The notes under the pieces were generated by a model, which saw only the letters and a program-made list of their open reading frames with translations, had not been told where the DNA came from and did no database searches. Made by a program: the position numbers and the translations under genes. A stretch of DNA of 64,000 bases from Escherichia phage PP01: the sequence record NC_054930.1. One strand, 5' to 3'. Shown here piece by piece: positions 1,750 to 62,756 of this stretch (the stretch's first letter is position 1; every line of letters starts with the position of its first letter).

Positions 1750-3033
1750 ATGGCTAAAATCAACGAACTTCTGCGCGAATCAACCACAACGAATAGCAAC
1801 TCAATCGGTCGCCCAAATCTCGTTGCTTTGACTCGCGCTACCACTAAATTAATATATTCTGACATTGTAGCAACGCAAAGAACTAATCAACCTGTTGCTG
1901 CTTTTTATGGTATCAAATACCTTAACCCAGACAACGAATTTACATTTAAAACTGGTGCTACTTACGCTGGCGAAGCCGGATATGTAGACCGAGAACAAAT
2001 CACAGAATTAACAGAAGAGTCTAAATTAACTCTCAATAAAGGCGATTTATTCAAATATAATAATATCGTTTATAAAGTATTAGAAGATACTCCATTTGCT
2101 GATATTGAAGAAAGCGACTTAGAGTTAGCTCTTCAGATTGCAATTGTTCTTTTAAAGGTTCGTCTATTTTCTGACGCAGCGTCAACAAGCAAATTTGAAA
2201 GCTCTGATAGTGAAATTGCGGATGCTAGATTCCAGATTAATAAATGGCAAACCGCGGTTAAATCTCGTAAACTTAAAACTGGCATCACAGTTGAATTAGC
2301 GCAAGATTTAGAAGCAAATGGATTCGATGCTCCTAATTTCTTGGAAGATTTGCTTGCAACTGAAATGGCAGATGAAATCAATAAAGATATTCTGCAGTCT
2401 TTGATTACAGTGTCAAAACGCTATAAAGTTACAGGAATTACTGATAGTGGATTCATCGATTTGAGTTATGCATCTGCACCTGAAGCGGGTCGTTCATTAT
2501 ATCGAATGGTATGTGAAATGGTTTCGCATATCCAAAAAGAATCAACTTATACAGCAACGTTCTGTGTTGCTTCAGCTCGTGCCGCTGCGATTCTTGCTGC
2601 ATCAGGTTGGTTAAAACATAAACCAGAAGATGATAAATATCTTTCACAAAATGCCTACGGGTTCTTAGCTAATGGTTTACCGCTTTATTGCGATACTAAC
2701 AGTCCATTAGATTATGTAATCGTTGGCGTAGTAGAAAATATCGGCGAAAAAGAAATTGTTGGATCAATTTTCTATGCTCCGTATACAGAAGGTCTCGACT
2801 TAGATGACCCTGAACATGTAGGTGCATTTAAAGTTGTTGTTGATCCAGAAAGCTTACAACCGTCTATCGGTTTATTAGTTAGATATGCTTTATCAGCAAA
2901 TCCTTATACCGTAGCAAAAGATGAAAAAGAAGCAAGAATAATTGATGGTGGAGACATGGATAAAATGGCGGGTCGTTCAGATTTGTCTGTTTTATTAGGT
3001 GTTAAATTACCAAAAATTATTATTGATGAATAA
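1750..3033 (+). CDS. 24: Capsid vertex protein gp24
   Basis: 427 aa as in T4 gp24; synteny after gene 23; late promoter upstream. Confidence 0.9.
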   Translation: MAKINELLRESTTTNSNSIGRPNLVALTRATTKLIYSDIVATQRTNQPVAAFYGIKYLNPDNEFTFKTGATYAGEAGYVDREQITELTEESKLTLNKGDLFKYNNIVYKVLEDTPFADIEESDLELALQIAIVLLKVRLFSDAASTSKFESSDSEIADARFQINKWQTAVKSRKLKTGITVELAQDLEANGFDAPNFLEDLLATEMADEINKDILQSLITVSKRYKVTGITDSGFIDLSYASAPEAGRSLYRMVCEMVSHIQKESTYTATFCVASARAAAILAASGWLKHKPEDDKYLSQNAYGFLANGLPLYCDTNSPLDYVIVGVVENIGEKEIVGSIFYAPYTEGLDLDDPEHVGAFKVVVDPESLQPSIGLLVRYALSANPYTVAKDEKEARIIDGGDMDKMAGRSDLSVLLGVKLPKIIIDE

Positions 3034-3064: not shown

Positions 3065-4070
3065 AGCTCACCAACTCAATCCAAGCTGGACGAAGTACAT
3101 CTTGTACCATTTTAACTAATTCCTTTTTAATCAAAGAAGGATTATCTGCTTGAGTTAGAGTAATACCTTCACGAGAAGTTTCTTCCAAAATATCTTGAAC
3201 AGTTAGCCCCATCACCTTTCCAAAATCCTTTGGACCAATTTCGCCAATTTTAGAAATAACGTTATTTACGCGGTTTAGTGTAACGTAACAAGCTAAAATT
3301 CCAACCAATTTGTTATCAGCTTCTGATAGTTCAACTTTAGCTTTAATAGGCTTATCAGACTTTTTCTTTTCACTAAATTTAGAGTTCTTGCATTTAATCG
3401 CTACACGAGCACCGTTTGGCAGCCATTTAGGGAAACAAGGCTTCAGAACATAACCTTCTGCAGTATTATCACCAATAACATTAGCATCAAATACACAATT
3501 ATTTGCTTCGACAAGGTCTTCCGATGCCGTAACGTTATAAGCGGCTAAGACGGAATCAAGGTCGTTTGGAATCATGATAAGAGCATCAAATGTTCCACGT
3601 CCAAGCATTGGTGCCATTTTAAAACCAAACGTATTACAGAAATCTTGCATTTCGTAATCACTCATGTAATAAGTATCACCGCTTTCCGTGTTTATGATGA
3701 TATCGAATACATAGAAATCTTTTTCACCGTAGTCAACACCTTTCTGAATTCCACCACCAGCGAATTCACCAAAGACTTGATATGTCACCGGCACTGAAGT
3801 TGAAATACTGTCCATGACTTCTTGAACGCCTTTAATAGCTTTATCATACTTTTTGAGTACTATTTCATAGCCATAAAAATCTTCTGCTGGAAGAATAGGG
3901 CCAGTACGTTTAGCGCAAGTTACTTTATCACGCTCAATAATCAATGAGAAATTTGTACCATGAATCTTTTCACGAGCTACCCACTCCCCACCAGTCAATC
4001 CCAAGCTATAAAGTTTTTCAATAAATTTAGAGTTGTAATGATTTTCAAGACTGCTATACTTTTTAAACAT
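3063..4070 (-). CDS. rnlB: RNA ligase 2
   Basis: 335 aa; nucleotidyltransferase lysine motif EKIHGTN; T4 position after gene 24. Confidence 0.85.
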
Positions 4071-4079
4071 AATTAATCC

Positions 4080-4358
4080 TCAAAATGTAATTTCTAACCA
4101 ATCACCATCACGCTGATCACTATTGACTTTAAAGCTGAATCCTTCTTTTCTCAGCCAATCACCAATTTCTTCAGTAATCAATTTATCACGAGCAATACAA
4201 TAATAATTAAAATGTGTTTTACCTTGTTCAGCTGCTTTATTAGCAAGTTCCGAAAAATCTTTAATAAAACATTCTAGCTTAAACTGTTTACTTTTGAATG
4301 CTTTTTCGCGTAATTGATTAGCAAAAGATTCATTTTCATAAAGATCATACTGTTCCAT
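4080..4358 (-). CDS. Hypothetical protein (T4 24.2-like position)
   Basis: 92-aa ORF with ATG start, tightly packed after the upstream ORF. Confidence 0.5.
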   Translation of the reverse strand: MEQYDLYENESFANQLREKAFKSKQFKLECFIKDFSELANKAAEQGKTHFNYYCIARDKLITEEIGDWLRKEGFSFKVNSDQRDGDWLEITF

Positions 4359-32908: not shown

Positions 32909-32912
32909 CAGC

Positions 32913-41703: not shown

Positions 41704-41720
41704 CAGTTTTGTGAAAAATT

Positions 41721-58610: not shown

Positions 58611-58760
58611 TTACTGTTCAAACGCGATTACTATCATGATAACACGCTGAATACCAAAAGCAAGAAGACCTCCTGCTACGGCTGGAACAACACCTAAACC
58701 CGCCAGTAAAATGGCACCAGATACTAACGCAGCGCTTGTAATACCTACGAATGGACTCAT
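58611..58760 (-). CDS. Small hydrophobic membrane peptide, 49 aa (not in ORF track)
   Basis: ATG with GAGGAAA SD; Gly/Ala/Leu-rich TM-like sequence; terminator directly downstream. Confidence 0.5.
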   Translation of the reverse strand: MSPFVGITSAALVSGAILLAGLGVVPAVAGGLLAFGIQRVIMIVIAFEQ

Positions 58761-60085
58761 TTGATTTCCTCTAAATCTTTGGTGTATTCTGTAACTACAT
58801 CAGTAGTTTTCCAATATTCGTTTTCTTCTTTCTTAGCTTTAGCTTCTTCGGCAAGTTTCTTTGCTTCATCAGAAGTCATGTGAAAAATATTCATTCCAAC
58901 TAGTTTATCAACATAAGAAGAATACATGTCAATTTTAGAAAGTTCTTCGGTCAGTTCTTTGCGAGTTTTACCCTGTACAACGATTTCACCTGAAATTACT
59001 TTCTTAATGAAATGTGCCTTGGCAAAGGCTAAACGAAATGCTGATTCAGTTTCTTTGATTTTGTTATCAATTCGTTTTTGGACATAAGTTTTACGAACTT
59101 CAACGAAGTCTTTGATTAAATCGACTACGTTATCGTAAACTTGTAGTTTTCCTTTCTCATTAATAACCGTAATATTCTGAGAACGACGCTCAATCAACCC
59201 GAAGTCTTTCATAATTTTTGCATGACGTTCTTCTTCATTATCGCTCAAAGAATATTCTTTGCGGAATTTAACTTTGAATCCAAAACCATGCTCACCGCAA
59301 GCATCATCCCATGTAATGAAGCCTTTATCTTCAAGTGGGTCTAAGATTTTACTCACATAAGTTTCACGATCATACTTATACGGAATCTCAGTGATATGCA
59401 TTTGAGTTCGTGAAGTAAACTTATATGTTCCACGAATTTCATATTGCCCATCAATCTCAACGACTTCACCACGAAATTCTGGGAATTCTACCTTCGGTTT
59501 AGTTACTTTCTTTCCTTGAAGAGCTTGCAGTACAGCTTTCTTAACAGAAGAAACACTATGAGGAAGAATGTAAGTTGCATAACCAGTTGCAATACCGGAA
59601 ACGCCATTAAGAAGAACGGTAGGAATAATAGGCAAATAGAAAGCAGGCGGAATGTGTTCTTTATCTTGATGTACCGGAGCATATTCAGTATCTTTATATA
59701 CGTTATAGAAATTTTTACTTACACGAGCAAAAATATAACGACTTGCCGCGGCCTTTTGAACAGTACGAGAACCAAAGTTTCCTTGGCCATCTAACAAAGG
59801 AAAGTTATTATTCCAAGTGTTAGCCATCAAAGCACCTGCATCTTGTGCAGAGTTTTCGCCATGGTGATATCCAAGGTCCGCTACACCACCTGCAATAGAA
59901 GCGAGTTTGTGAAACTTATCTTTATTTCCTCGTGCCAAATCAAGAGCTCGAGCAATAACAAATCGTTGAACTGGCTTAAATCCATCAATCATATTTGGAA
60001 TGGCACGATTTTCAACCGTGTACATAGCATAAGCCAATGCTTCATTATCAATGATACTTTTTAAATCGCGATTATTCAGTTGCAT
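58757..60085 (-). CDS. 52: DNA topoisomerase II medium subunit gp52
   Basis: 442 aa as in T4 gp52; synteny. Confidence 0.9.
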   Translation of the reverse strand: MQLNNRDLKSIIDNEALAYAMYTVENRAIPNMIDGFKPVQRFVIARALDLARGNKDKFHKLASIAGGVADLGYHHGENSAQDAGALMANTWNNNFPLLDGQGNFGSRTVQKAAASRYIFARVSKNFYNVYKDTEYAPVHQDKEHIPPAFYLPIIPTVLLNGVSGIATGYATYILPHSVSSVKKAVLQALQGKKVTKPKVEFPEFRGEVVEIDGQYEIRGTYKFTSRTQMHITEIPYKYDRETYVSKILDPLEDKGFITWDDACGEHGFGFKVKFRKEYSLSDNEEERHAKIMKDFGLIERRSQNITVINEKGKLQVYDNVVDLIKDFVEVRKTYVQKRIDNKIKETESAFRLAFAKAHFIKKVISGEIVVQGKTRKELTEELSKIDMYSSYVDKLVGMNIFHMTSDEAKKLAEEAKAKKEENEYWKTTDVVTEYTKDLEEIK

Positions 60086-60089
60086 AAAT

Positions 60090-60230
60090 TTACCATACTA
60101 GTGAATGTAGTGCCATAATAACATCAGAAATGAAAAGCACGACTTGAATTAATCCGAACATTACTCCATAATATAATGCTACCAATAAAGCAGCAAGGGC
60201 TAATGAATAGCCCAAGATTTTCTTAATCAT
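60090..60230 (-). CDS. Small hydrophobic membrane peptide, 46 aa
   Basis: ATG start; single TM-like segment; not in ORF track. Confidence 0.4.
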   Translation of the reverse strand: MIKKILGYSLALAALLVALYYGVMFGLIQVVLFISDVIMALHSLVW

Positions 60231-60381
60231 TAGTAGATAACAACACAAATGTTAAATATGCACACATACCCTGAGCTAAAGCTTGCGAAAACACACTGCT
60301 GGCATCAATACAGATAGTTAAAACACATGCTACTATCCAACAAATAAATGAAATAACTCCTAATAATTTTGCAATATTCAT
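60223..60381 (-). CDS. Small hydrophobic membrane peptide, 52 aa (possibly ac)
   Basis: ATG with GAGGAAA SD; Cys-rich TM-like sequence; position between stp and gene 52. Confidence 0.45.
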   Translation of the reverse strand: MNIAKLLGVISFICWIVACVLTICIDASSVFSQALAQGMCAYLTFVLLSTND

Positions 60382-60388
60382 ATTTTCC

Positions 60389-60469
60389 TCACTGGCGTCC
60401 GAAGACGCCTTTAGTTTTAAGATTATTACGATAAAACTGCATCACGTGTTCGTTGTGAAAATTACTCAT
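60389..60469 (-). CDS. stp: Stp peptide, 26 aa
   Basis: Translation [26 protein letters not shown] matches T4 Stp as I recall it; not in ORF track. Confidence 0.75.
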
Positions 60470-60927
60470 TAATATGCCTGCAAAACGAATTTAAAGTTAT
60501 CAGCCAACATACGGTTCATTTCTTCAAGTGTTTGATACTCAGAATGATGATTACGAGTAAACGCAAAAGCTAACTGTCCTTTTCCAAATCCCGTCGTCAA
60601 AGGTTTCATCTTAGAAGCAGGCAGATAAAATACTGTGTATGGAACATTGTTATTTGCAATAGTACGTGCAAGTTGAGACCGTCGTTGACGAATATGACTT
60701 AGAACTGCACTGAATCCTTGCTTAGAACGCTGATTACCTACATAAAATCGTGCAGACACACATGGATTACTAAATGGACGACCATCTAATTTACTTACTA
60801 AAAAATAAAATCCAGGTTTAGATAAAATATCTTTATGCGGAGTTCCCAAAAACCACTCACCACCCTTGATTGTACCAATAACAGTAGCGCCTGCATTGTT
60901 CAGATCAGTAACAGTCATGTATTTCAT
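60469..60927 (-). CDS. ndd: Nucleoid disruption protein Ndd
   Basis: 152 aa from ATG 60927 (SD AGAGGAAA); the track start is an upstream non-ATG extension; synteny. Confidence 0.6.
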
Positions 60928-60987
60928 ATTAATTTCCTCTAAATTATTTTCTACTCCAAGGCCGCATGAATACACACGGCCATTAAA

Positions 60988-61203
60988 TTAATCGTCGCAG
61001 TCGACGCTCAATTCCCAGAATTCTTCTACGGTATAAGTTTCAGTATCATTTTCAATACAGAAACGTTCATTACTGTTATTTGCTAAAGTAGCGTTAACTG
61101 TCATTTTCTCGCTAGTGCTCTTAAGAGGTGAAATACGAATTAACTGATCACCGTTATCTAAACAAAAAATTTCACCAACTTTTACATCTTTAAAAATTTT
61201 CAT
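60988..61203 (-). CDS. Hypothetical protein (ndd.1-like)
   Basis: 71-aa ORF with GAGGTGA SD. Confidence 0.5.
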   Translation of the reverse strand: MKIFKDVKVGEIFCLDNGDQLIRISPLKSTSEKMTVNATLANNSNERFCIENDTETYTVEEFWELSVDCDD

Positions 61204-61211
61204 AATTCACC

Positions 61212-61322
61212 TCAAGGAGTATAAAATCCAAATGCAGTTGTTGACCATCCCATCCAATATGGGAAATTTGCACCAATGTAAAACATAAGAATATAAAACC
61301 AACCGCTCAGCAAATTCATCAT
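61212..61322 (-). CDS. Small hydrophobic peptide, 36 aa
   Basis: ATGATGA-coupled to the upstream ORF; aromatic-rich TM-like sequence; not in ORF track. Confidence 0.35.
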   Translation of the reverse strand: MMNLLSGWFYILMFYIGANFPYWMGWSTTAFGFYTP

Positions 61323-61516
61323 TTTACACCATTCCAAATTGTTTCAACCACGGATTTTAAACCATTTTGATGAATATCCATTCCGACTACCGCCATCAAA
61401 TAAATTCCAACTACAACTGAACCTAAGGCAAAAATCAGCATGAAAATGAATAAAGCCGGAAAAATATTATCGAAAAACCATTCAATAAATGTAAAAGCAC
61501 TGCGTTTACGCTTCAT
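61319..61516 (-). CDS. Small membrane protein, 65 aa
   Basis: ATG 61516 with GAGGAAAAT SD; TM segment IFPALFIFMLIFALGSVVVGIYLMAVV; the track start is a TTG. Confidence 0.45.
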   Translation of the reverse strand: MKRKRSAFTFIEWFFDNIFPALFIFMLIFALGSVVVGIYLMAVVGMDIHQNGLKSVVETIWNGVK

Positions 61517-61523
61517 ATTTTCC

Positions 61524-61637
61524 TCACATAAATCCAAAGTAAACGTTTAATACATCAATCATTAAAACGATTGGGAATATACTCAAAACTACTAGTATTA
61601 TAACTACATTCCATATAGCTTTAATAATCTTTTTCAT
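61524..61637 (-). CDS. Small membrane peptide, 37 aa
   Basis: ATG 61637 with GGAGGAACAGAAA SD; TM segment VVIILVVLSIFPIVLMI; the longer track ORF overlaps its own promoter. Confidence 0.45.
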   Translation of the reverse strand: MKKIIKAIWNVVIILVVLSIFPIVLMIDVLNVYFGFM

Positions 61638-61665
61638 TTTCTGTTCCTCCGTAGTTGATAGGGTA

Positions 61666-61694
61666 ATAGTACCACGGAAGAACAGTCTTGTAAA
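61666..61694 (-). promoter_or_regulatory. Early promoter
   Basis: Minus strand GTTTACA-N17-TACTAT. Confidence 0.5.
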
Positions 61695-61911
61695 CAACTT
61701 TTTAAAAATATTCGTAATAAATGTGAATACCAACTACTACCGCTGAAACCTGTGCAACCCACCACGCACAAGCAATAAGTACAGAATTCATAATTTTCAT
61801 AATAACCTCATTACAAAAGTAAATGTTAAACAAATTAATGGAATACTAACTAACCAAACAAAACACCACCACAATGAACTCATAGTTCAATCTCAACGAT
61901 TTTCATTTTAC

Positions 61912-62118
61912 TCAATAATCCGCTAAAAGATCAACGATTGCATCACGAAGACACTTATTCGCAATACGTTTAAGAGCAATTTCAGTTTCTGGAGCATTTT
62001 GAATAATCATCGAATTCAACTCAGCCTCAGCAAATTGAAGTTCTTTAACTAGTTCAGCTTTATATTTCCCTTGCCCTTTCTTAGCTTTTGCTCGTTTTAA
62101 TTCAGCTGTAGTAAACAT
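61912..62118 (-). CDS. Hypothetical protein, 68 aa
   Basis: ATG 62118 downstream of an early promoter; the track start lies upstream of the promoter. Confidence 0.45.
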   Translation of the reverse strand: MFTTAELKRAKAKKGQGKYKAELVKELQFAEAELNSMIIQNAPETEIALKRIANKCLRDAIVDLLADY

Positions 62119-62152
62119 TTTATTCTCCAAATCCGTATCAGTTGATAGTTGT

Positions 62153-62181
62153 ATAGTACCACGGTCCTTGTGGTATGTAAA
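62153..62181 (-). promoter_or_regulatory. Early promoter
   Basis: Minus strand GTTTACA-N17-TACTAT. Confidence 0.5.
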
Positions 62182-62198
62182 CTGTTTTGTGAAATTTT

Positions 62199-62756
62199 TT
62201 AAATGGAAAGATACCATCCGTTGTAGTTGCTTTTTCTTACAACCTTACGAAGGTCTTCTCTGTCACCGATGAACTTCGGAGTGTACTGGATGACACCTGG
62301 ATGAATTTCTTTAGTGTTGAATATAATTATACAGTCAGCGACTTGATGATTTAGAATGGGCCCTAGATTTATTCCAGAACCATATGGATACTCTCCGCTG
62401 CATCCCGTTGTTACCGAAATCCAACGTGAGTCAGTTTGATGTGTCTTAACTTCTACACGAAGCCCACAGTATTTTGGATGTGCTAAAACATCCCATGCAT
62501 ACGTGTACGGATCATCGACATCTTCTTGGCCTTTATTGACATATCCGCTTAGCCAATCTGCCACAAAAAACTCTGCGTACACAGCGATACGGCATCTTTC
62601 GATAACTTCTGCCTTATCCTGATTTGGGTTCTGTTTTAAAGAGTATCTTGCAGTATCAGCAATTTTGACCTTCATTTCATTGGTTAAATCGTTGTTCGAT
62701 AGAGTAAATGTTGGAATCTGAAATAGTCTCTGTAACCCAGGATTCGTTTTCTGCAT
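62199..62756 (-). CDS. denB: Endonuclease IV
   Basis: 185 aa as in T4 DenB; position next to rIIB. Confidence 0.75.
   Translation of the reverse strand: MQKTNPGLQRLFQIPTFTLSNNDLTNEMKVKIADTARYSLKQNPNQDKAEVIERCRIAVYAEFFVADWLSGYVNKGQEDVDDPYTYAWDVLAHPKYCGLRVEVKTHQTDSRWISVTTGCSGEYPYGSGINLGPILNHQVADCIIIFNTKEIHPGVIQYTPKFIGDREDLRKVVRKSNYNGWYLSI

Follow-up and report, generated by a model that had tools for sequence, protein, structure and literature searches.

Small hydrophobic peptide genes in the early block between gene 52 and denB of a T4-like Escherichia phage

Between gene 52 and denB, the DNA of Escherichia phage PP01 carries a tight row of tiny genes, which is analyzed here in a stretch of 64,000 nucleotides (nt) from record NC_054930.1 (the window). 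A small bacterial inner-membrane modulator with which several of the encoded peptides can be compared is AcrZ, the 49-amino-acid (aa) partner of AcrB. The closest described systems are those of T4 and its relatives. Ac is the acriflavine-sensitivity determinant: deletions or changes such as G38R render T4 resistant, E. coli expressing Ac is sensitized to acriflavine and ampicillin, and a 52-aa allele with an extra threonine is reported to be functional (bioRxiv 10.1101/2025.06.30.662393). This two-helix membrane peptide has been proposed, but not proven, to block AcrAB-TolC (bioRxiv 10.1101/2025.06.30.662393; repeated in PMC13250531). By inhibiting type Ic restriction enzymes, Stp unmasks the PrrC anticodon nuclease; the N-terminal 18 residues of Stp are implicated in the interaction with EcoprrI (PMC3014915).

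Further work concerns the block as a whole and the region around it. T4 data place all genes of the block in the early transcript class (PMC9697503, Table S2). The sa-delta-9 deletion, which removes T4 52.1 through denB, lowers the burst to ~50% of normal and abolishes the phage-induced stimulation of phospholipid synthesis, especially that of phosphatidylglycerol; the authors of that review describe the products of ndd.1-ndd.6 as unknown and several products of the region as predicted membrane proteins (PMC6071114). Promoter-early stem-loop (PeSL) cassettes flank shuffled open reading frames (ORFs) in the hyperplastic regions of T4-like phages (PMC2839356, PMC4122927), and the ndd.4/ndd.5 exchange of T4 serves as an example in Comeau et al. 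2014 (PMC4122927). For RB49 and phi1, terminator/attenuator activity and mini-circle recombination of PeSLs have been shown by reporter and polymerase chain reaction assays (PMC2839356, PMC4122927).

Judged by gene order and homology, the interval 60090-61637 of the window is the standard T-even early nonessential block 52.1-ac-stp-ndd-ndd.1-ndd.2-ndd.2a-ndd.4, followed by ndd.5 and ndd.6. In the explanation that we hold to be very likely, this is a T-even early block in which the small ORFs are real genes, expression comes from two promoters, and the peptides other than those already understood would be membrane modulators.

Gene content of the block

A megablast search with positions 60000-62300 retrieves 560 phage records, 482 of which cover at least 80% of the query. 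All matches are Tequatrovirus or near relatives, the closest being RB14 and bov9_1 at ~97.5% identity; a more sensitive search places KMB40 at 98.1% and finds weaker matches in other Tevenvirinae genera. Since the best matches, RB14 and KMB40, stand at 97-98%, the window is assigned from its sequence to a T4-like phage of the genus Tequatrovirus that is distinct from T4 itself. The same gene order is found in RB14, in KMB40, and in ~480 further Tequatrovirus records at 97-98% DNA identity, and the core genes 52 and denB flank the hyperplastic region in which the block sits. Gene starts were chosen as ATG codons with ribosome-binding sites and by comparison with the T4 and RB14 annotations. All genes of the block, like the two genes that bound it, are on the minus strand, as follows.

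58757-60085, minus strand: gene 52, 442 aa, core gene, left boundary
60090-60230, minus strand: gene 52.1, 46 aa, hydrophobic
60223-60381, minus strand: ac, 52 aa, hydrophobic
60389-60469, minus strand: stp, 26 aa, hydrophilic
60469-60927, minus strand: ndd, 152 aa, hydrophilic
60988-61203, minus strand: ndd.1, 71 aa, acidic, soluble
61212-61322, minus strand: ndd.2, 36 aa (35/36), aromatic-rich
61319-61516, minus strand: ndd.2a, 65 aa, hydrophobic
61524-61637, minus strand: "ndd.4" (the name in T4 and RB14), 37 aa, hydrophobic
61702-61800, minus strand: "ndd.5," 32 aa, hydrophobic, outside 60090-61637
61797-61883, minus strand: "ndd.6," 28 aa, hydrophobic, outside 60090-61637
61880-61906, minus strand: remnant ORF MKIVEIEL*, 8 codons, its stop overlapping the ndd.6 start (four-way alignment)
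61912-62118, minus strand: ORF68 (RB32ORF266c type), 68 aa, soluble, absent from T4 and RB51
62199-62756, minus strand: denB, 185 aa, right boundary

The original prediction, made from the sequence, had described 60090-61637 as a cluster of tiny hydrophobic ORFs between gene 52 and denB, with at least six ORFs of 36-65 aa that have transmembrane-like segments, plus the 26-aa stp. The gene map bears out both neighbors, and stp was correctly recognized. The ORFs are dense as described, but only five of that size lie inside the interval, 44% of which (675 of 1548 bases) is taken up by ndd and ndd.1, both hydrophilic, and its right edge cuts a cluster that continues to 61883. Hydropathy supports the transmembrane-like segments in four of these five: the best 19-residue Kyte-Doolittle means fall at 2.2-3.05 for 52.1, Ac, Ndd.2a, Ndd.4, Ndd.5, and Ndd.6 (2.35-3.05 for the four in question), but the aromatic-rich Ndd.2 is only moderately hydrophobic and reaches only 1.17. 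The grand average of hydropathy is 0.6-1.9 for six of the seven small hydrophobic peptides of the block. Starts and stops do overlap, by 8 nt for ac/52.1, by 1 nt for ndd/stp, and by 4 nt (ATGA) for both ndd.2a/ndd.2 and ndd.6/ndd.5. The suspicion that the list of ORFs contained overextended frames was justified as well, with 52.1, ndd, ndd.2, ndd.2a, ndd.4, and ndd.5 all stretched to upstream TTG or GTG codons. As for the view that no function apart from that of stp is evident, it holds for most of the peptides but not for Ac, whose part in acridine sensitivity is known.

The T4 block (NC_000866, 165209-166996) and that of RB14 (NC_012638) share gene order, strand, overlaps, and promoters with the window, at a protein identity of 93-100%. 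The window differs from T4 in its 52-aa Ac allele with the extra Thr, its 152-aa Ndd, and an intact 65-aa ndd.2a, which is split in the T4 reference. Between ndd.6 and the upstream promoter it has the 68-aa ORF, which T4 lacks, and is without the 87-aa ORF of RB14 and RB51. All of these ORFs have previously been annotated in T4 or its relatives; the block itself is already known and not novel, and the T4 gene map gains nothing from it. What it does expose is a genuine gap, in that the best-studied phage has six conserved early membrane peptides to which no function has been assigned: a literature search on 52.1 and ndd.2-ndd.6 returned nothing beyond annotation.

Coding status and likely role of the small ORFs

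All seven small hydrophobic ORFs (28-65 aa) are genuine genes that code for conserved proteins. On the minus strand, ATG-initiated ORFs with a length of 26 aa or more occupy 92% of 60090-61883; in 300 dinucleotide-preserving shuffles the mean is 32% and the maximum 69%, and none reaches the observed value. Six small ORFs have a transmembrane-grade segment, compared with a shuffle mean of 1.07, and a single shuffle of the 300 equals this count. Every ORF matches a PHROG family (E values of 1e-17 to 1e-38), and three pass Pfam gathering thresholds, namely, 52.1 (DUF7396), Ndd.2a (DUF7248), and Stp (PF08133). Conservation of several ORFs extends over four or five genera of the Tevenvirinae. Across nine Tequatrovirus alleles, frame, length, start, and stop are all retained, and the substitutions fall mainly at third codon positions. 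The ratio of nonsynonymous to synonymous polymorphism (pN/pS), pooled within Tequatrovirus, is 0.00 for ac, 0.02 for stp, 0.05 for ndd.2, 0.05 for ndd.2a, 0.09 for ndd.1, 0.11 for ndd.5, and 0.17 for ndd.6.

52.1 is the most conserved peptide of the block and is under tighter constraint than the essential gene 52 beside it. It is 100% identical to T4 gp52.1 and matches DUF7396 (PF24129) over residues 1-46 of 46 with 81.1 bits against a cut-off of 27, as well as phrog_3595 (1e-25). In Dhakavirus, 52.1 is 93-98% identical, compared with 81% for gp52 and ~60% for Ndd; in Gaprivervirus, the figures are 87% for 52.1 and 69% for gp52. Because it is more conserved than gp52 and Ndd, 52.1 could have an important role. 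The motif QVVLFISD is invariant among the 52.1 sequences examined, except in the Jiaodavirus homologue, which retains VLFISD. Its stop lies 4 nt before the ATG of gene 52, its own ATG lies inside the 3' end of ac, and the position immediately upstream of gene 52 is held in five genera. AlphaFold2 models 52.1 as a single helix of residues 2-45, with a mean predicted local distance difference test score (pLDDT) of 96.6; the model agrees with a membrane helix and is compatible with a single span as well as with a hairpin. When 1.84 billion representatives are scanned in full by HMMER with the 52.1 profile, the scan recovers T4-like phage proteins only, in nine clusters at 50% identity, and a search of 5.8 billion proteins finds no relatives of 52.1, Ndd.2a, or Ndd.1 outside T4-like phages. 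In the Dhakavirus vB_EcoM_005 (MK295203, locus coordinates 2796-3008), the 52.1 frame is broken and the ORF in the ac slot is fused, 70 aa long, and overlaps a shortened gene 52; this arrangement is either an assembly error or a genuine rearrangement.

In the explanation favored here, 52.1, Ndd.2, Ndd.2a, Ndd.4, Ndd.5, and Ndd.6 would enter the inner membrane of the host within minutes of the start of infection and, by analogy with Ac, might there modulate host envelope proteins as small proteins. AcrZ offers a bacterial parallel. It resembles the block peptides in size class and predicted membrane location, and AcrAB-TolC is the proposed target of Ac; the parallel is incomplete in that inhibition of the pump, and not its tuning, is what has been proposed for Ac, and profile searches with the peptides found no sequence relationship.

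Several points weigh against this explanation. Membrane insertion and topology are inferred from hydropathy and one AlphaFold helix only, and the modulator step draws on the analogy to Ac, whose own mechanism is a hypothesis. The peptidomic check proposed in the original prediction can be made in part with T4 data, in which all the genes yield early transcripts but mass spectrometry detects Ndd and Ndd.1 only, and not 52.1, Ac, Stp, or Ndd.2-Ndd.6 (PMC9697503, Table S2); nondetection is expected for short transmembrane peptides and leaves their translation unproven. The pooled pN/pS values of 52.1 (0.37) and ndd.4 (0.88) rest on very few, conservative changes within Tequatrovirus, and for this reason these two genes were compared across genera, where pN/pS is 0.05-0.21 for 52.1 in Dhaka-, Gapriver-, and Mosigvirus (0.53 for Jiaodavirus) and ~0.3 for ndd.4. 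Cross-genus constraint on ndd.6 is weak, with a pN/pS of 0.6-1.0. Finally, denB or another gene, and not the peptides, may account for the lipid phenotype of sa-delta-9.

The peptides could instead be host-range, anti-defense, or superinfection-exclusion factors like Imm, Sp, and rII, an alternative that we consider possible though unlikely. Each would then counteract a membrane-associated defense of the host or of a prophage, or keep incoming phage out. The original prediction had pointed to resistance and superinfection-related factors of T-even phages, which is a reasonable analogy. An adaptive role has been suggested for the genes of the hyperplastic region that holds the block (PMC4122927), the gene content of the block varies cassette-wise between close relatives, and the block is dispensable on laboratory strains; the nearby stp (anti-restriction) and rIIB/rIIA (protection against prophage exclusion) are counter-defense genes. 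However, an experimental link exists for none of the peptides, and searches of PHROG, Pfam, and NCBIfam match none of them to a known superinfection or anti-defense family. Moreover, 52.1, ndd.4, and ndd.2a do not vary but are conserved from genus to genus, so that a housekeeping role in infection fits them better than an arms race.

We give little credence to the idea that the peptides jointly remodel the inner membrane and determine the phosphatidylglycerol stimulation of T4. The loss of this stimulation upon deletion of 52.1-denB, together with the predicted membrane proteins of the region, speaks for it (PMC6071114). However, mutants without dCTPase, endonuclease IV, or Alc likewise lack the stimulation, and the partly overlapping deletion rII-delta-DD2 also loses it (PMC6071114). 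Because these data point to denB or the right end of the block, the sa-delta-9 phenotype is not assignable to the peptides, and profile searches found no family relation to lipid enzymes.

It is highly improbable that these are membrane-damaging peptides of the type I toxin or holin kind that aid host shut-off. In size and hydrophobicity they do resemble Hok, TisB, and Ibs-type toxins, but at permissive thresholds neither Pfam nor NCBIfam links the hydrophobic peptides to toxins, holins, transporters, or cellular families: at E values up to 10, neither database gives a hit to Hok/Gef, holin, or any toxin family, Pfam gives the hydrophobic peptides no hit at all, and NCBIfam returns only subthreshold noise. 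Among the noise, SecD/F scores 10 bits and bacteriocin 51 scores 14.8 bits, far under the cut-offs. T4-infected cells need an energized membrane for >20 minutes, which also tells against such toxicity. In addition, expression of Ac alone, without drug, is not reported to be lethal (bioRxiv 10.1101/2025.06.30.662393).

That the tiny ORFs are chance frames in AT-rich DNA, the region being a leader or spacer for ndd and gene 52, is barely credible: at 34% G+C, U-rich codons do specify hydrophobic residues, shuffles do yield ~1 hydrophobic small ORF per 1.8 kb, and both the T4 proteome and the constraint on ndd.6 leave room for it, but the shuffle counts, the nine conserved alleles, and a pN/pS far below 1 for most ORFs all stand against it, protein conservation persists in genera whose Ndd is only ~60% identical, and ac is genetically proven, its mutations and deletions altering the phenotype.

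Early promoters, coupling, and the promoter-embedded stem-loop

The reading of the block as T-even early genes for real, membrane-modulating peptides includes its expression from two promoters. When the DNA from denB to gene 52 is scanned with the consensus of T4 early promoters (GTTTAC, 16-18 nt, TAnnnT), two strong T4-type promoters and no others appear, GTTTAC-N17-TACTAT, at 62182-62153 and 61695-61666, each with a TG upstream of the TACTAT -10 box. Between the same two genes there is no match to MotA-box middle promoters or to late promoters, nor does Rfam give a match over 59900-62400 at E values up to 0.1. The genes form two polycistronic early units, transcribed leftward. Unit 1, from the promoter at 62182, consists of ORF68, the remnant ORF, ndd.6, and ndd.5, and unit 2 of ndd.4, ndd.2a, ndd.2, ndd.1, ndd, stp, ac, 52.1, and 52. 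The tiny ORFs had been credited with early promoters of their own; because neither promoter lies inside 60090-61637, this claim fails, and the two promoters serve the whole block.

A clear GAGG/GGAG site precedes ac, ndd, ndd.1, ndd.2a, ndd.4, ndd.5, and ORF68. No such site precedes 52.1, stp, ndd.2, or ndd.6, the very genes whose ATG overlaps the stop before it. Given both features, these four are probably translated by coupling. The promoters and the RNA hairpins of the region are listed below.

62153-62182, minus strand: early promoter GTTTAC-N17-TACTAT, heads the ORF68/ndd.6/ndd.5 unit; no significant hairpin (z 0.1)
61641-61695, minus strand: PeSL element, an early promoter (-35 GTTTAC, 61695-61690; -10 TACTAT, 61671-61666) plus a 15-bp stem
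60960-60981, minus strand: GC-rich hairpin of 9 bp, GGCCGUGUG....CAUGCGGCC, in the 60 nt between ndd.1 and ndd (60925-60995 folds at -16.8 kcal/mol, z -2.85)
60394-60409, minus strand: GGCGUCUUCGGACGCC hairpin with a UUCG tetraloop, within the last stp codons and directly ahead of the Shine-Dalgarno sequence of ac (predicted RNA energy -12.3 kcal/mol, z -2.8; first found by a terminator-like scan on the plus strand)

The PeSL element at 61641-61695 reads AAAAAGTT-GTTTACA-N17-TACTAT, which matches TTTACW-N17-TAYWAT with an A/T-rich upstream region. Its 15-bp stem has a predicted energy of -22.7 kcal/mol and a z score of -4.8, none of 200 shuffles being as stable; G-U pairs make the stem specific to one strand. 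Its 5' arm (61685-61671) falls within the spacer of the promoter, and the 3' arm (61655-61641) holds the GGAGG Shine-Dalgarno sequence of the 37-aa gene. No U-run follows the stem on the mRNA strand. This promoter-stem architecture recurs in three other genera, Dhaka-, Gapriver-, and Jiaodavirus, where the promoters of the ndd.4 homologues have the same layout with different arms, e.g., CAUCUCCAUUAG/CUAAUGGAGAUG in JS98 and CAUCUCCGGUGGUUG/CAACUACUGGAGAUG in VR20. The stem z scores are -4.8 in JS98, -4.1 in ABTNLsp5, -6.3 in VR20, and -2.8 in 311F. These hairpins were folded per genus, as cross-genus MAFFT columns were structurally inconsistent and the covariance-model alignment mixed in other promoters.

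The element at 61695 shares with the described PeSL class (PMC2839356, PMC4122927) the early promoter with a stem between the -35 and -10 boxes or over the -10 box, the Shine-Dalgarno sequence and start codon at its 3' end, and the adjoining cassette-type indels. In this element and in three or four other window promoters, the ribosome-binding site itself forms the 3' arm of the stem. In the text searched, the two PeSL papers give terminator/attenuator and recombination roles and make no mention of the 3' arm as a Shine-Dalgarno sequence (PMC2839356, PMC4122927). Since the 3' arm is the ribosome-binding site, the stem at 61695 should mask translation of the 37-aa gene on read-through transcripts; the promoter lies within the DNA that encodes the 5' arm, and promoter-proximal transcripts therefore lack that arm. 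The same geometry is found in T4 e, soc, 49, and I-TevI, where the ribosome-binding site is masked on long transcripts and free on promoter-proximal ones (PMC3014915). Those genes use late promoters, which makes a temporal switch, whereas the promoter embedded at 61695 is early, so that any effect would be on which early transcript is translated and not on timing.

On its minus strand the window has 12 early promoters of the GTTTAC type. In four of these (61695, 32909, 26100, and 17324) the spacer pairs with the Shine-Dalgarno sequence, and at 41704 it does so in part. Three more, 40979, 29588, and 25708, have a stable stem over the -10 box only, and no stem is seen at 62182, 58554, 55931, or 45003. 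The elements at 32909 and 17324 are near-identical copies. Promoter-embedded hairpins that would mask ribosome-binding sites are offered here as a testable idea for some PeSL stems.

A more speculative proposal, doubtful on present evidence and built by analogy, is that 52.1, the 37-aa Ndd.4 type, Ndd.2a, and Ndd.6 might be AcrZ-like binders of host inner-membrane machines, with Ac and AcrAB-TolC as the first example. 52.1 would then be, e.g., a membrane partner of the topoisomerase/replication complex, with whose gene it is linked in translation. Separately, the promoter hairpins would act as a promoter-choice translational switch for early genes.

Individual genes, the T4 reference, and cassette variation

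Ndd.2a belongs to DUF7248 (PF23906; residues 6-63, 71.9 bits against a cut-off of 27). It has a basic N terminus, MKRKRS, followed by ~28 hydrophobic residues and a conserved C-terminal NGLKSVVETIWNGVK, and its homologues in Gaprivervirus and Jiaodavirus both retain the C-terminal motif NGLKSVVETIWNG.K. Because of the basic N terminus, the positive-inside rule suggests a single span with the N terminus in and the C terminus out, the tail being amphipathic and conserved. The T4 reference reads ATGAA-CGTAAACGC where the window and RB14 read ATGAAGCGTAAACGC. With this one base missing, the 65-aa ORF becomes ndd.3 (26 aa, out of frame) and a 40-aa ndd.2a whose start is an internal ATG. Over this site, an 81-nt T4 probe is matched at 100% by only X75802, AF158101, and NC_000866, which all seem to go back to one original sequence. 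All the independently sequenced T4 genomes listed (HM137666, KJ477684, KJ477685, OZ209023, and OZ209057) span one extra base, nearly all of the other ~487 records show 95-99% identity to the probe, which fits the same one-base gap, and the intact 65-aa ORF was read directly in KJ477684 and OZ209023. By this comparison of records, T4 ndd.3 is not a gene; ndd.3 and the 40-aa ndd.2a are a one-base sequence artifact of a single 65-aa gene. The ndd.2a region of T4 NC_000866 (locus coordinates 3433-3629) corresponds to 61319-61516 on the minus strand of the window.

Ndd.4 matches phrog_3098 (4e-21) and is 61-64% identical in Dhakavirus and Gaprivervirus. The start ATG of the 42-aa version annotated in T4 overlaps the Shine-Dalgarno sequence and is ACG in the window, so that the 37-aa start is the conserved one. 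The annotation would thus be corrected in several places: T4 ndd.3 and ndd.2a are one 65-aa gene, ndd.4 has 37 aa rather than 42, ndd.6 and stp are often unannotated, and ndd.1 is often mislabeled.

Ac matches phrog_2501 (3.7e-25) and is 100% identical to RB14 Ac and 96% identical to T4 Ac. Its two hydrophobic segments meet at D26-A27. It represents the allele in which a Thr has been added close to the C terminus, and it has all three of the residues D26, A27, and G38 described in bioRxiv 10.1101/2025.06.30.662393. In the genera compared, the slot between 52.1 and stp/ndd always holds a ~50-aa peptide with two hydrophobic segments, which falls into at least two sequence classes: an Ac-like one in T4, RB51, JS98, and SF, with the common motif SVF.Q..AQG, and an unrelated-looking one in ABTNLsp5, VR20, and 311F.

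Stp scores 75.3 bits against PF08133 (cut-off, 25) and is identical to T4 Stp in 26 of 26 residues. Raoultella phage RP180 (MK737937), a 45-kb Kagunavirus siphovirus unrelated to T4, has an unannotated 25-aa ORF on the minus strand (locus coordinates 1195-1272) that shares 24 of 25 residues with T4 Stp. By tblastn, Stp-like ORFs are also found in Rtp, Ro145clw, and LHE71. The occurrence of such ORFs in these four phages suggests that this anti-restriction peptide has spread horizontally.

Ndd, the 152-aa nucleoid disruption protein, is no small hydrophobic ORF; it is 97-98% identical to the T4 and RB14 proteins and 58-63% identical in four other genera. Ndd.1 matches phrog_2183 (2.7e-38), shows 45-53% identity in Dhaka-, Gapriver-, and Mosigvirus, and is detected early in T4 infection (PMC9697503); an AlphaFold2 model from a shallow alignment (pLDDT 41) is unusable. 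In many phage records Ndd.1 is labeled "naphthalene 1,2-dioxygenase" or "outer membrane protein," and in phage records Ndd.5 and Ndd.6 are also labeled "outer membrane protein" and motA "flagellar motor protein." Such labels look like propagated annotation errors, the 71-aa Ndd.1 having no matching family.

Ndd.2 (phrog_4135, 1.7e-24) and Ndd.5 (phrog_5011, 9e-26) are found in Tequatrovirus only. The first ndd.2 codon is ATA in RB51, so that the second ATG may be the true start of this gene. Ndd.6 (phrog_8851, 5.6e-17) retains the pattern MSS..WC..W..IPxIC in Dhaka-, Gapriver-, and Mosigvirus and is unannotated in RB14, RB51, and CAM-21. A possible resemblance of Ndd.6 to the transmembrane region of Hok, an impression by eye, was dropped, as profile searches gave it no support.

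The region upstream of ndd.6 varies in a cassette-like manner. ORF68 matches phrog_4535 (4e-24) and is 100% identical to the RB14 and CAM-21 ORFs. In the four-way alignment, the promoter at 62182 is followed by ORF68 and ORF87 in RB14, by ORF87 in RB51, by ORF68 in the window, and by neither in T4, a clean presence-absence difference between close relatives. The in-frame deletion of ORF87 leaves the 8-codon remnant (MKIVEIEL in the window), whose stop still overlaps the ndd.6 ATG, and thus preserves the coupling to ndd.6. The ORF68 and ORF87 indel junctions lie at repeated (A/G)TAAAATG(AAA) sequences between the two early promoters. The spans compared were 61880-62182 (minus strand) in the window, 3985-4105 in the T4 locus (L001), 3370-3936 in L002, and 4270-4623 in L007.

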